Below are positions 8,049 through 11,897 of a DNA stretch of 64,000 nucleotides, piece by piece. A program made the position numbers and the translations under genes. The notes beneath the pieces are model-generated. The model was not told the DNA's origin. It made no database searches and saw nothing but the letters and a program-made list of their open reading frames with translations. This DNA comes from Acidobacteriota bacterium (lineage in GTDB: Bacteria; Acidobacteriota; Thermoanaerobaculia; Multivoradales; Multivoraceae), in the NCBI GenBank assembly GCA_011525365.1, contig WTGQ01000002.1:3745941-3809940 (forward strand), in the 5' to 3' direction. How positions within the stretch are numbered: the first letter of the stretch is position 1; each line of letters starts with the position of its first letter.

Positions 8049-11000
8049 CTAGCGTTCCGCCGGCAGACCTCGGCTCGCCACGACCTCAAGGCTGCCGTCG
8101 CCGGCGATCTCGAGCGCCTCGGTCACCGGCCGGCGCAGGATAGCCTGCACCTGTCCGGTCTCCGGATCGCGCAGAATGGCCAGCGGCAGGTCGGTGTCCT
8201 GGTCGAGGACGACCGATTCGTCGTCACCCAGAAGACTGATTCGCTCCAGGGCCCCCTCCCAGCTCACGGGGATCGAGAAGACGAAGCCGGAGCGCCCGTC
8301 GTCCAGGTCGGGCAGTTCCGGCATGTCGAATGGCAGCGAGAAAGCCACGCTCCCGTCTTCCGTCGTCCCCCTCAACAGGTAGTCGCGCCCCGGTGGAGGA
8401 AGGGACGTCAGGGCATCGGCGATCACCGCCGGCTCGAGGAACGGGTTCCCGCCGGCGTCCAGACCGCCCGACACAAGGAGGGACCGTCTCCTGGCGTTCC
8501 TGGCGTCCGGCCCATTGACCTCTCCGAACCAAGCCATGGCGCGGGTCGTACCGACGCTTTCTGACTTCACGCGGTGCCGAAGCGCGTTCGCCAGATGGTA
8601 GTCGCTGATCCAGTGGTTCCTGCAGTACGTCATCAGGTCCGGTGTGTACGGAGAAACGAGAGTCTTCGTATCGCGGTCGTATCCCCAGGCTCCGATCACT
8701 CCCGTCGGGTGGGGGTACCGAGGGTCGGGACCGGCAGCGCCCCCGCACGGTGCGTGGGACAAGCTCAAGTTGTGTCCGAGTTCATGAGCCACCGTTCGAG
8801 ACAGCGGCTGTGAAAAGCTCGACCGGCCCGGTACGTACGCTACTCCCAAGATCCCAAGGCGAACGGGCGCCAGCATGCCCATGTAGTAGCCGGGCCGCCC
8901 TTCCATGAGCCGGATCATCTCGGTCTCGCGAAGGATCGTGAGGGCGTTGTCGGTGGAGGAGAAGACCGGGTCGTGTGAGTGGACTTCCAGGCCGCCTACC
9001 GGGAGAAGCGTGCGAGTCTCCTTGAGCAGTGGATGCTCTTCGGGCGCAGCCGCCATCTCCTCCGTGATCTCCAGGATGGATCGGTCAGGATTGGACTCGT
9101 AGAGGAACGGAATCACTGTCAACTGGAAGTCCGGCAGGTCGACCACGTCCACTGCCGTCCGCCCGCGCTCCGGCAATCGCCGCCGGACCCCGGCACCGGC
9201 ACGTCCGCCCGGGTCGATCTCGATCACCATTTCCAGCCCCGGCCGGATCACACTGCCCGGTACGTCGGCGTTTGCGCTGCCGGTCAGGGAACCCTCGTCG
9301 ATCGCCGCTGGCACGCGCGCACTGCTCGCCGGAATGTCCACGCGATGTATCCGCGCATCGTCGACGTAGAACGTGGCCCGTACTTCGGGCACCCTCGAGC
9401 CGTCCCCGTTCTCCTGAGCCAGGAACACCCGAAGGAGCGCGGGCCGGCCCGCTATCAGAGGCACCGGAAACTCCCTCGATTGCACGGACTGGGTCAGATA
9501 CGCCTCGGCTGGTTCGCATCGGGCCAGCCGTTGAAAGGGAATCCCGCTGAGCCAAGCCAGCAACTCGGGATCCGGGGGCGCGCACAGGCGCGTACCTCCG
9601 GCCTTGAAGCTCGCCAGGTTGTCGAGGCGTGTGAGGCTCGCCGGCACGGGGCCGGAGAGCGCGGGATTGGCGCCGACCCGAAGATCGGTGAGGTTCGTCA
9701 ACGACCCGAACTCGTCCGGCAACCCACCCGACAGCGCGTTGCCGTCCAGATACAAACGCCTCAGTTCGCCAAGAGTCGACAACCAGGATGGGATCGAGCC
9801 CGTGAAGCCGTTGCCTCCGAGTTCCAGCGACGAGAGACGGGACAGGCTACGGAGTGTCCCGGGGATGGCGCCGCTCAGTGCGTTCCCCGAGAGTTGGAGG
9901 TTGCGGAGATTCTCCATGTCCCCAAGTTCAGCCGGAACTTCACCGATGAGATGGTTGGATATCAGATTCAACTGCAGTAGCCGGGAAAGACGTCCCAACT
10001 CGGCAGGAATCGGTCCACTCAGTTCGTTCCAACCGACCCACAGCCAAAACAAGTTGGCCAGATTGCCCAACTCCGGGGGTAACGTCCCGGTCAGATAGTT
10101 GGCCTCGAGCTCAAGCATCTCCAGGCCGATCAGACTTCCCAGTTCGGGGGGAATAGGTCCGGTCAATCCGCTTCCGGCCCATCGCAGCCGTTTCAGCTTG
10201 CCAAGCCGCGCGAGCGCCGGCGACAGGGGACCGCCTAACCCCGTCCCACTCAGGGTCAAGTACTCCAAATCTGTCAAGTCGAAGAACTCCCGCGGCAGAC
10301 GACCCTGGAGCAGCACGTTGCTCGAGAGGTTCAGGCGCTGCAGGTGCGCGAGTCCCCCCAGTTCCGGCGGGATCCTGCCGACCAGGAAGTTGCGCCTGAG
10401 GTTCAACTCAACCACATTGCCCGATTCATCCGTCGTCACGCCGTGCCATTCGCCGAGCGGCCTATCGGTCAGCCAGTTCGTATCGTCCGTCCAGTTCGGG
10501 CCGTTCGTCGCCTCGTAGAGGGCCGCCAGCGCCGCCCGGTCGGAGATCGAAAGGTCGCCTCCCAGGCACGGGAACGCTTCGCCATCGGCGACAGAGCGCC
10601 CGGTACTGACCCGGAACCACTCGAGTTCGTTGGACCGGGTGTCACGGATCGCGATGCGGAAGTCCGCGTCCGATGCGGCCCCGGCATACACCGTCCAGTG
10701 ACCCGTGGCCCTGCATGTGTTGACGACCCGGAGTAGAAGCTCCGAATGGCCGCTGGCGGAGGTGAACAGTCCCGCGGTCTCACCCAAGTTGACGGCCACC
10801 GTCGGCGCCGCCCAGTTCGGGCCGCCGGCTCTCGAATACCAGGTCTTCACCCGGAAGGCTCCCGTTTGCAGGAAGCACGTCACGCCGCCGCATGGACTGC
10901 CCGAGTCCATCCCGGGTCCCGCGGTCGCGATACCGGCATCGCCCGGCGCGCAGGAGAACGCATCGGCATCCGCGACGGAGCGCCCGGCCTTGACCCCGAA

Positions 11001-11897
11001 CCACTTGAGTTCGTTGGACCGCGTGTCCCTGATCGCCACACGGAAGTCCGCGTCCGATGCAGCCCCGGCGTACACTGCCCAGTAACCCGTTACGCTGCAT
11101 TGGTTGACGATCCGGACTAGAAACTCCGAGCTGCCACTGTCGGAGGTGAACAGTCCGGCGGAACCCCCGAGAGCGGCTCCGACGGCGCCGGCACTCCGGC
11201 CGGAGCCGCCATTGGAGTACCAGGCCTTGACCCGGAAGCGCTCTCCCTGCAGAAGACAGGTCACTCCGCTGCAGGAGGAAGTAGCGAGCGCCGTGGTCGG
11301 GTTGTCGCCGGCAAGCAGCTTGTCTCGCCCTTCCGTGATGAGTCGATCGGCCGCCCGCAGCGCCACCGGGACCGCTGGCCGCTCCGTCTTGAAGTAGTCC
11401 GCAGCCCTCTCCACACCCGCAACTCGATCAGCGATCCAGTGGCGGAAGCGCGAGGCGTCCCGGAACTGACCCAGGAAGTACTCCGCGATCGCGTGGGCGC
11501 CTGACTCCTCGGCTTCCAGGAAGAGCAGAACGCGGTCGCCCTCGGCAAGCATCGGCAGCCCCAAGGCAGACTGCCGCGCCGTCGGCACGCCTTCGTCTGC
11601 GTGCCGAACCATGATCGCGCTGCCGCCAACGAAGCCCTTCAGGACCTCCTCGATACCGAACAGATACTCCGTCGTCGGGCCCGTGCCCTCCCGCCCCGGA
11701 TGGACACCGAGCACCTCGCCGAAAACGATCAGCGGTGACCCGTCCACTAGGCTCTCGTCGGCCGACACGACGGCCTGCGAAGGTGCGGTCGACACGGTTG
11801 CCGCGAGGAGCAGCCCCGCGACACTCAGGACAAACGGTCCCCGACGACCGAAGCGACCGCATGAACGGCCCGACTCGAATCTGCCAAACGCCAGCAT
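8049..11897 (-). CDS. Secreted multidomain protein: two tandem Cys domains, LRR N-cap, ~10 plant-type leucine-rich repeats and a reprolysin-like zinc metalloprotease
   Basis: Signal peptide at the N-terminus. Two ~105-aa paralogous domains follow (GVTC[LF]LQ..RFRVK.WYS...ELL[VL]R[IV]VN.C..TG.W.VYAGAASDADFR[VI]AIRDTRSNEL.WF). Then an LRRNT-like cap (ALYEATNGPNWTDDTNWLTD...W.GVT) and repeats of L..L..L.L..N.LSG.IP..LG.L. The C-terminus carries HELGHNLSLSH, a metzincin/reprolysin-type zinc-binding motif. Confidence 0.8.
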   Translation of the reverse strand: MLAFGRFESGRSCGRFGRRGPFVLSVAGLLLAATVSTAPSQAVVSADESLVDGSPLIVFGEVLGVHPGREGTGPTTEYLFGIEEVLKGFVGGSAIMVRHADEGVPTARQSALGLPMLAEGDRVLLFLEAEESGAHAIAEYFLGQFRDASRFRHWIADRVAGVERAADYFKTERPAVPVALRAADRLITEGRDKLLAGDNPTTALATSSCSGVTCLLQGERFRVKAWYSNGGSGRSAGAVGAALGGSAGLFTSDSGSSEFLVRIVNQCSVTGYWAVYAGAASDADFRVAIRDTRSNELKWFGVKAGRSVADADAFSCAPGDAGIATAGPGMDSGSPCGGVTCFLQTGAFRVKTWYSRAGGPNWAAPTVAVNLGETAGLFTSASGHSELLLRVVNTCRATGHWTVYAGAASDADFRIAIRDTRSNELEWFRVSTGRSVADGEAFPCLGGDLSISDRAALAALYEATNGPNWTDDTNWLTDRPLGEWHGVTTDESGNVVELNLRRNFLVGRIPPELGGLAHLQRLNLSSNVLLQGRLPREFFDLTDLEYLTLSGTGLGGPLSPALARLGKLKRLRWAGSGLTGPIPPELGSLIGLEMLELEANYLTGTLPPELGNLANLFWLWVGWNELSGPIPAELGRLSRLLQLNLISNHLIGEVPAELGDMENLRNLQLSGNALSGAIPGTLRSLSRLSSLELGGNGFTGSIPSWLSTLGELRRLYLDGNALSGGLPDEFGSLTNLTDLRVGANPALSGPVPASLTRLDNLASFKAGGTRLCAPPDPELLAWLSGIPFQRLARCEPAEAYLTQSVQSREFPVPLIAGRPALLRVFLAQENGDGSRVPEVRATFYVDDARIHRVDIPASSARVPAAIDEGSLTGSANADVPGSVIRPGLEMVIEIDPGGRAGAGVRRRLPERGRTAVDVVDLPDFQLTVIPFLYESNPDRSILEITEEMAAAPEEHPLLKETRTLLPVGGLEVHSHDPVFSSTDNALTILRETEMIRLMEGRPGYYMGMLAPVRLGILGVAYVPGRSSFSQPLSRTVAHELGHNLSLSHAPCGGAAGPDPRYPHPTGVIGAWGYDRDTKTLVSPYTPDLMTYCRNHWISDYHLANALRHRVKSESVGTTRAMAWFGEVNGPDARNARRRSLLVSGGLDAGGNPFLEPAVIADALTSLPPPGRDYLLRGTTEDGSVAFSLPFDMPELPDLDDGRSGFVFSIPVSWEGALERISLLGDDESVVLDQDTDLPLAILRDPETGQVQAILRRPVTEALEIAGDGSLEVVASRGLPAER

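Follow-up and report, generated by a model that had tools for sequence, protein, structure and literature searches.

A predicted secreted leucine-rich-repeat metzincin gene in a variable slot between thrS and rpmI of a Thermoanaerobaculia genome

The window analysed here is a 64-kb stretch of an Acidobacteriota genome (contig WTGQ01000002.1), to which all coordinates and strands below refer unless a locus identifier (L0xx) is given. It carries an open reading frame (ORF) of 1282 amino acids (aa), hereafter the giant gene, predicted to encode a secreted leucine-rich-repeat (LRR) metalloprotease. Read along the minus strand, the genes run tRNA-Val(GAC), tRNA-Val(CAC), thrS, the giant gene, rpmI and rplT, with rpmI-rplT on the same strand as thrS, downstream of it and parted from it by a 3.85-kb gene. 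ORF calls and tblastn agree with the original prediction that the gene sits between thrS and rpmI-rplT, in a window without infC, the gene for initiation factor IF3; no infC match was found in the whole 64 kb by tblastn (best E values of 3.0 with E. coli IF3 and 0.39 with Thermoanaerobaculia IF3 as query). The features of the locus are as follows.

14189-14265, minus strand: tRNA-Val (GAC), upstream of thrS (ARAGORN; Rfam tRNA, 70-72 bits across this gene and the next).
14086-14162, minus strand: tRNA-Val (CAC), upstream of thrS.
12118..14055, minus strand: thrS, threonyl-tRNA synthetase, 645 aa (Pfam TGS, tRNA_SAD, tRNA-synt_2b, HGTP_anticodon); conserved left flank of the slot.
11898..12117, minus strand: spacer of 220 nt from the thrS stop to the giant-gene start, with two stable hairpins directly past the thrS stop that lack a U-tract.
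8049..11897, minus strand: the giant gene, a 1282-aa ORF for a predicted secreted, multidomain LRR metzincin-type metalloprotease, probably lineage-specific accessory cargo.
7956..8045, minus strand: rpmI leader of ~90 nt directly downstream of the insertion point, containing hairpins, a hexamer resembling TAGTAT, and a stem (GAGCC...GGCUC) that overlaps the Shine-Dalgarno sequence.
7764-7955, minus strand: rpmI, 63 aa, starting MPKQKTH (Pfam Ribosomal_L35p; tblastn synteny); conserved right flank of the slot.
7353-7736, minus strand: rplT, 127 aa (Pfam Ribosomal_L20; tblastn synteny); conserved right flank of the slot.

The giant gene has a GGAGG Shine-Dalgarno sequence 7-8 nt ahead of its ATG, and both are kept in the orthologous loci L082 and L084. 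Its insertion point falls between the thrS stop, with its two hairpins (the fold of 12050-12125 on the minus strand reaches -32.7 kcal/mol, z = -2.4), and the rpmI leader. This leader folds with a minimum free energy of -46 kcal/mol (z = -2.1) and is near-identical in 13 out of 13 loci from the group that we call 'Multivorans'-like, whether the slot is empty or filled; owing to this high conservation it shows almost no covariation. Rfam at gathering thresholds gave neither an L20 leader nor a riboswitch-like element near rpmI, and the leader could be an L20/L35 autoregulatory element. The arrangement fits thrS and rpmI-rplT being independent units, the latter with its own control region, in which case cargo upstream of rpmI would be tolerated. 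Nothing ties the giant gene itself to translation.

The encoded protein is built from the following parts.

11769..11897, minus strand: predicted signal peptide, aa 1 to ~43, with an Arg-rich n-region, a hydrophobic core (FVLSVAGLLLAATV, aa 22-35) and then SQA|VV (hydropathy scan).
11418..11732, minus strand: N-terminal domain, aa ~56-160, with OB-fold (oligonucleotide/oligosaccharide-binding fold) topology b1-b2-b3-helix-b4-b5-helix in an AlphaFold2 (AF2) model (mfbd0a24b42b3; predicted local distance difference test, pLDDT, 55-75).
10938..11285, minus strand: 4-Cys beta module 1, aa 205-320, with Cys 209/214/267/316 (pLDDT 80-95); aligns with module 2.
10554..10904, minus strand: 4-Cys beta module 2, aa 332-448, with Cys 336/341/395/444 (pLDDT 83-93).
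9498..10553, minus strand: LRR domain, aa 449-800, with a Cys-free N-cap (DRAALAALYEATNGPNWT...WHGVTT), 11-12 repeats and a C-cap with Cys772/Cys794.
8052..9500, minus strand: C-terminal protease module, aa 800-1282, comprising a beta-sandwich (~800-930), an alpha/beta catalytic domain (~940-1120) and beta-sandwich domain(s) (~1135-1282).
8754..8786, minus strand: zinc motif HELGHNLSLSH, aa 1038-1048, with H1038, E1039, H1042 and H1048.

The N-terminus of the protein is conserved in two orthologues, P0002 and P0006, and hydropathy and cysteine spacing bear out the earlier call of a signal peptide, which we treat as predicted, and two tandem Cys domains. When the model of the N-terminal region was compared with the PDB by Foldseek, it retrieved the C3 C345C/NTR domain, N-TIMP-1, N-TIMP-3 and OB-fold proteins (E 4.5e-4 to 4e-2), hits that by its topology probably belong to the domain at aa ~56-160; this OB-like domain lacks the N-terminal Cys typical of TIMPs, and confidence in its model is modest. 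Together with the Cys modules it is 45-60% identical to paralogues that carry CARDB and whose best protease match is Peptidase_M10 (matrixin), at 21-27 bits around a cut-off of 24. Two such paralogues lie in the same genome, and in paralogues P0053, P0091 and P0034 the OB-like domain precedes the region matching Peptidase_M10. Taken with the model, there are hints that it acts as a pro-domain or an inhibitor-like part. The two Cys modules, in tandem and ~115 aa each, have no Pfam match at E<=1, and module 1 is ~60% identical to modules in at least 40 CARDB-type proteins.

The repeats were read by eye as 11-12 plant-type units of 24 residues (LxxLxLxxNxLSGxIPxxLG, aa ~495-770); a stricter regular expression finds eight, and a self-BLAST of the protein did not report internal repeats. 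Pfam LRR_1 (2.3e-21), LRR_8 (4e-19), LRR_14 (1.5e-18) and LRR_4 all match well past their cut-offs, and NCBIfam models for XopAE, XopAC and XopL match the region in part. The plant-type repeats of the original prediction therefore stand, and its LRRNT-like cap does not: LRRNT_2 gave no Pfam hit at E<=1, no Cys, and so no Cys pair, lies between aa 445 and 771, and the N-cap resembles such caps at the level of a motif only (ALxALYxxTxGxxW...WxGV). Likewise, 'receptor-like sensor' is apt for the repeat type alone, since neither a transmembrane nor a kinase part was seen (a transmembrane predictor not being among the tools applied); Pfam matched LRR and peptidase families and nothing of a kinase or signalling type, and in the AF2 model the region past the LRRs folds as beta-sandwich and protease domains.

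The AF2 model of the protease module (m90c35bb0ffc9) reached a pLDDT of 85 and a predicted template modelling (TM) score of 0.87. Its zinc motif is retained in 30 of 32 aligned homologues, and HExxHxxxxxH in 119 of the 120 best family matches. Just downstream lie the near-invariant Cys1051/Cys1092 and the candidate Met-turn Met1089 (DLMTYC), which within DLM(S/T)YC is at least 90% conserved. The Gly position of the consensus HExxHxxGxxH is Ser here; among 119 family members it is S in 72, N in 26 and G in 13. Peptidase_M66 matched at 27.2 bits against a cut-off of 20.6 (E 2.4e-6), aa 1021-1091 covering profile positions 180-252 of 306, whereas Reprolysin_3 (15.1 against 22.4) and Reprolysin_5 (12.1 against 27) stayed below their cut-offs. 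Foldseek matched the catalytic module to the ADAM-8 catalytic domain (E 2.2e-4), the O-glycopeptidase OgpA (5.2e-4) and InhA2 (7.8e-3) in the PDB, and sequence searches of the PDB returned zinc-site matches only, to adamalysins, ADAM-17 and matrix metalloproteinases (MMPs). The protein had been said to end in a reprolysin-like protease. The zinc protease and the ADAM-like fold hold, the Reprolysin hidden Markov models (HMMs) do not, and the domain is not the C-terminal end, as ~170 aa of beta-sandwich follow it; domain searches thus back the LRR and M66 assignments above cut-off and leave LRRNT_2 unmatched and Reprolysin_3 and Reprolysin_5 below theirs. We classify the protein as a protease of the metzincin type, closest among the curated families to M66, in which its membership is borderline.

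Ratios of nonsynonymous to synonymous substitution (dN/dS) against two orthologues were 0.33-0.38 overall, 0.16-0.19 in the catalytic core, which is the most constrained part of the protein, ~0.4 in the LRRs, and ~0.1 in flanking housekeeping genes. By these measures the giant gene is functional and evolves faster than its flanks. A phantom ORF in high-GC DNA was considered as well, and was rejected on 137 homologues and the dN/dS values just given.

An alternative that we regard as improbable, although the likeliest of the rivals, is that the protein carries an inactive or vestigial catalytic domain and works as an adhesin of LRRs and Cys modules only. The Ser in place of the canonical metzincin Gly and the partial M66 coverage would suit it. 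However, the three His and the Glu of the motif are in place and kept across the family, Ser is the majority residue there and so a family trait and not a sign of decay, and no part of the protein has a lower dN/dS than the catalytic core.

The architecture, which had been put forward as unusual, is common: its homologues number in the hundreds to thousands and come from several phyla. A profile built from the last 486 residues matched 7861 representative clusters with E<=1e-3, of which 5262 reach <=1e-10 and 2019 reach <=1e-30; the module is the last domain in nearly all listed matches, in proteins of 470-2750 aa, and 85 of the 120 best matches in the larger database have at least one LRR ahead of it. 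Source labels include Gemmatimonadetes, 'Ca. Palauibacter', Chloroflexi and Gammaproteobacteria, and some members are named 'M66 family metalloprotease' by NCBI. This very large family is mostly one of marine symbionts. With its N-terminal parts shared with the paralogues of Peptidase_M10 type, the giant protein belongs, as a product of domain shuffling, to a large set of secreted proteases.

Four known systems are worth setting beside it. StcE is a secreted, multidomain protease with an Ig-like domain before its catalytic domain and the zinc site HEVGHNYGLGH. With M66 proteases (StcE of E. coli O157:H7 and TagA of Vibrio cholerae; PF10462) the giant protein shares the sole protease Pfam family above cut-off, the zinc-site spacing (HExxH, five residues, H), a downstream Met, the candidate Met-turn, and the NCBI naming of close family members; it differs in its partial profile match, in Ser for Gly, and in the LRR domain and 4-Cys modules in front. 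With the M12B adamalysins/reprolysins (ADAM-8, ADAM-17, snake-venom metalloproteinases) the likeness is at fold level only (the ADAM-8 match has a probability of 1.0 and a TM score of 0.48 on the target), with the best PDB sequence matches near the zinc site to acutolysin and ADAM-17 (E 0.003-0.01); unlike them, it scores below cut-off with the Reprolysin HMMs, is 12-14% identical, has no Pfam disintegrin match and carries other flanking domains. The Xanthomonas type III effectors XopAE, XopAC and XopL have the same plant-specific LRR class (NCBIfam 87, 75 and 52 bits), but these scores lie far under the cut-offs of 450-600 bits, the predicted signal peptide is of the Sec rather than the type III kind, and their effector domains are others.

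The fourth comparison is with the eukaryote-like LRR proteins of sponge and coral symbionts. In sponge metagenome-assembled genomes (MAGs), those of Acidobacteriota and Gemmatimonadota among them, eukaryote-like repeat proteins such as LRR proteins are enriched, and many of these have been acquired by lateral transfer (PMC8163846); the lineages richest in eukaryotic-like proteins include reef-associated Acidobacteriota (PMC13083261), and sediments as well as sponges and corals harbour Palauibacterales (PMC10469786). Here too we have a bacterial LRR protein, relatives whose isolate names point to sponges, and homologues in MAGs of Gemmatimonadota ('Ca. Palauibacter'), Chloroflexi and Gammaproteobacteria. 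The literature mostly treats such repeats as host-manipulation modules, whereas in the giant protein the LRR would be the targeting arm of a protease.

To place the genome, relatives were found by a ThrS scan with one genome per GTDB species. This gave ten relatives whose ThrS is 87-95% identical to that of the window, all labelled as Thermoanaerobaculia, 'Candidatus Multivorans' or Acidobacteria MAGs; the genome is a member of the Thermoanaerobaculia close to 'Ca. Multivorans'. A gene for the identical 1282-aa protein is also present on a 2.24-Mb metagenome scaffold (ENA ERZ23491745) and in other assemblies of up to 3.88 Mb. The host bacterium appears to be marine and, from the relatives' isolate names COS1_bin_13 and CO36388bin_1, is probably associated with sponges.

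Comparison of the slot between thrS and rpmI across these relatives revealed several cargo states. In the sister species L002 and L011 it is empty, with thrS and rpmI ~100 bp apart and the same rpmI leader present; in the seven filled 'Multivorans'-like slots the inserts span 1.0-4.7 kb. L003, L004, L006 and L007 carry, in the same slot, an AAA_15/AAA_21 ATPase, a PIN-like protein and a PF09414 RNA ligase, and L005, L008 and L009 hold the ligase or fragments of this cassette only. The complete cassettes lie at the following positions.

L003, 8658-11222: three-gene cassette.
L004, 11940-14566: three-gene cassette.
L006, 11961-14573: three-gene cassette.
L007, 11961-14481: three-gene cassette.

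The cassette ATPase corresponds to PADLOC HEC-03B (579 bits) and the PIN-like protein to HEC-03A (161 bits), a candidate defence system whose PADLOC model does not include the RNA ligase. Among more distant genomes, the slot of L015 (12053-17426), a member of the Thermoanaerobaculia, holds a 1053-aa CHAT-TPR protein and an animal-haem-peroxidase-like protein, and that of L039 a MacB/FtsX permease.

Orthologues of the giant gene stand at the identical thrS|rpmI position on two metagenome contigs, P0002 on L082 (85% identity) and P0006 on L084 (70%). The C-terminal ~110 codons of P0006 (L084 ~9400-9708) resemble an out-of-frame reading of the conserved C-terminal domain and, because L084 is a 3.28x long-read contig, probably reflect a sequencing frameshift and not a true truncation. 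A homologue outside the slot, P0005 on L083 (77% identity), lies beside a CARDB protein, integrase fragments, YoeB/YefM and DUF433 (L083 6641-9200). The neighbourhoods of the L084 gene and of P0005 are rich in mobile and defence elements, and L084 has an AbiEii/AbiEi pair inserted between ilvA and thrS (1452-3456).

Cargo states are interspersed on a neighbour-joining tree of ThrS, and the three carriers of the giant gene are not monophyletic. Synonymous divergence is likewise uneven: against L082 it is 0.31 for thrS and 0.29 for the giant gene but 0.72-0.75 for rplT and rny, and against L084 it is 0.23-0.30 for the flanks but 0.57 for the giant gene. The G+C content at third codon positions (GC3) of the giant gene is 0.79, against 0.88-0.94 in the flanking core genes. 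No integrase, att repeats or transposase was seen at the slot. The discordant divergences fit recombinational exchange through the conserved flanks, and the slot is a cargo hotspot that has repeatedly gained, lost or exchanged genes, probably by homologous recombination. In this it resembles the core-gene-flanked hotspots of pangenomes, with thrS and rpmI as conserved flanks, with empty, defence-cassette and protease states, and with divergence that differs between cargo and flanks; it is unlike them in that no integrase, att repeats or transposase accompany it and in that recombination would be its presumed mechanism. A bolder proposal, which we think doubtful, is that the spacer is a cross-species exchange site at which the LRR-metzincin and the HEC-03/RNA-ligase cassette are swapped by homologous recombination between co-resident species of 'Ca. 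Multivorans'-like symbionts, and that the N-terminal OB/TIMP-like domain of the protease, shared with the matrixin-like paralogues, is a built-in inhibitor that keeps it latent.

Given such neighbours, the giant gene might itself be anti-phage or other defence cargo, for example an abortive-infection protease, and not a secreted enzyme directed at host or prey. The candidate HEC-03 cassette in the slot of sister species, the AbiE genes near it in L084 and the CHAT protease in the L015 slot all favour this. We nevertheless hold it to be very improbable: the giant protein has no PADLOC match at E<=1e-3, its N-terminus is signal-peptide-like, eight of its Cys are arranged as in extracellular disulphide modules, and family members bear the surface-type domains Big_2, Big_1 and CARDB.

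We then turn to infC, which the original prediction took to have been replaced by the giant gene. ThrS, IF3, L35, L20, ZapA and RNase Y were mapped onto 80 loci, and the gene orders at thrS were tallied in three groups (n=10, 23 and 39).

'Multivorans'-like (10): thrS-infC-rpmI, 0; thrS-infC without nearby rpmI, 0; thrS-rpmI adjacent without infC, 2; thrS-[insert]-rpmI without infC, 7; thrS alone, 1 (rearranged).
Other Thermoanaerobaculia/Acidobacteriota (23): thrS-infC-rpmI, 9; thrS-infC without nearby rpmI, 1; thrS-rpmI adjacent without infC, 11; thrS-[insert]-rpmI without infC, 2; thrS alone, 0.
Other phyla (39): thrS-infC-rpmI, 15; thrS-infC without nearby rpmI, 9; thrS alone, 15; the other two classes, 0.

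The premise that infC lies between thrS and rpmI in nearly all bacteria proved overstated, with this order in 15 of the 39 loci from other phyla. Displacement of infC by the giant gene out of a thrS-infC-rpmI-rplT operon, with an unusual event or a link to translation implied, would account for a gene exactly at the canonical infC position in a window without infC, and in ten related Thermoanaerobaculia thrS is indeed followed at once by infC; rpmI comes next in nine of these, and L086 has the complete thrS-infC-rpmI-rplT order. Relatives routinely lack infC here, however: it is missing at this locus in all ten closest species and in 13 of the 23 other Thermoanaerobaculia, 11 of the latter having thrS and rpmI adjacent, so the loss came earlier. 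Sister species have empty sites, unrelated cargo occupies the slot elsewhere, the rpmI leader stays intact whatever the cargo, and L082 and L084 carry the giant gene at the same position. We give displacement a slighter chance still than a role in defence. Gene order across these genomes indicates that infC loss from the slot is old, lineage-wide and earlier than the giant gene; since infC would already have been gone in a much older ancestor, the giant gene replaced nothing.

In L086, whose order is canonical for Thermoanaerobaculia, pheS-pheT lie between rplT and zapA (7507-10814). The pair is missing at this locus in the window (7000-7353) and in close relatives, which, as pheST is absent besides infC, suggests that the whole cluster has eroded and not infC alone.

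Least probable of the rivals is that part of a eukaryotic (plant-like) LRR receptor, joined to a protease, was acquired recently and serves as receptor or sensor. The plant-specific 24-residue LRRs and the LRRNT-like leader sequence speak for it. Against it, all taxonomically named matches are bacterial (most matches being unnamed), LRRs of this type are also found in bacterial Xop effectors, Pfam finds no LRRNT_2, kinase or other signalling domain (the transmembrane predictor not having been run), the G+C content of 0.66 and the GC3 lie near those of the host genome, and the LRR-protease unit is conserved over several bacterial phyla.

The explanation that best accounts for these observations, and which we consider likely, is that the giant gene is a lineage-specific accessory gene for a secreted LRR metzincin in a variable slot between two independent transcription units. 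Several points weigh against it. The signal peptide was called by eye from hydropathy, and the HMM match behind M66 membership spans just 73 of the 306 positions of the profile, with StcE absent from the PDB sequence searches and from the 50 listed Foldseek matches. As to the independence of the two units, a consensus scan gave no sigma-70-like promoter, terminators were no more frequent than in shuffled sequence, and with hairpins past thrS that lack a U-tract and no promoter found, read-through from thrS is possible. The ThrS tree was built from one gene by neighbour joining, the L084 contig may contain errors at its coverage, and the sponge origin of the sample rests on the relatives' isolate names and could not be confirmed. 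Finally, infC is presumed to lie elsewhere in the genome because IF3 is essential, and a database search with the L017 IF3 listed 120 matches, all 69-94% identical soil-clade proteins, none of them from the genome's 2.24/3.88 Mb contigs or from the relatives' chromosomes; one, P0213, lies in a canonical arrangement in another genome. That the clade might have no canonical infC at all is a further supposition, far less likely than the exchange-site proposal above and barely credible.

Other features of the window lie further from the slot. Downstream of rplT on the minus strand follow a 71-aa ORF, zapA, 6S RNA, rny and ymdB. The 71-aa ORF (7138-7353, minus strand), between rplT and zapA, is rich in Glu, Ala, Leu and Arg, looks like a coiled coil and has no Pfam hit; a gene of this length is called at the equivalent place in L082 and L084, and it may encode a ZapB-like division protein. 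The 6S RNA (6563-6749, minus strand; Rfam RF00013, 68 bits) lies directly downstream of zapA, an order that we take to match the zapA-ssrS neighbourhood of E. coli. Elsewhere are a tRNA-Sec gene (62291-62390, minus strand), a ccm (cytochrome c maturation) gene cluster beside multihaem-cytochrome-like ORFs (~24000-36000) and two PKD/Big_1 surface-type proteins adjoining relA/spoT (38321-39962); a look-up of the ORF at 53785-55155 gave no result.

Under the preferred reading, in which the giant gene is accessory cargo for a secreted LRR metzincin, the signal peptide would export the protein, the LRR solenoid would bind a protein or glycoprotein target, and the adjacent catalytic domain, with its HExxHxxxxxH site and candidate Met-turn, would cut the target so bound, the flanking beta-sandwich, 4-Cys and OB-like modules contributing adhesion, spacing or latency. 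Most likely, then, it is a secreted, LRR-targeted metzincin acting on matrix proteins of a host or prey. Its substrates may be host extracellular-matrix or mucin-like proteins, which could serve feeding on the host or persistence in it; such targets fit the LRR-protein enrichment and lateral transfer reported for sponge and reef symbionts (PMC8163846, PMC13083261).

For the biology of this lineage, the apparent disruption of a textbook operon would amount to an ordinary, old lineage trait combined with an accessory gene in a tolerant intergenic spot, and the thrS|rpmI slot neatly illustrates, for uncultured symbionts, how a cargo hotspot can lie between core genes. For the family, whose zinc motif departs from the metzincin consensus by Ser or Asn for Gly, the LRR and M66-like combination is abundant and biochemically uncharacterised in several phyla, including lineages of marine invertebrates' associates, and is a candidate for host-matrix processing or host interaction.

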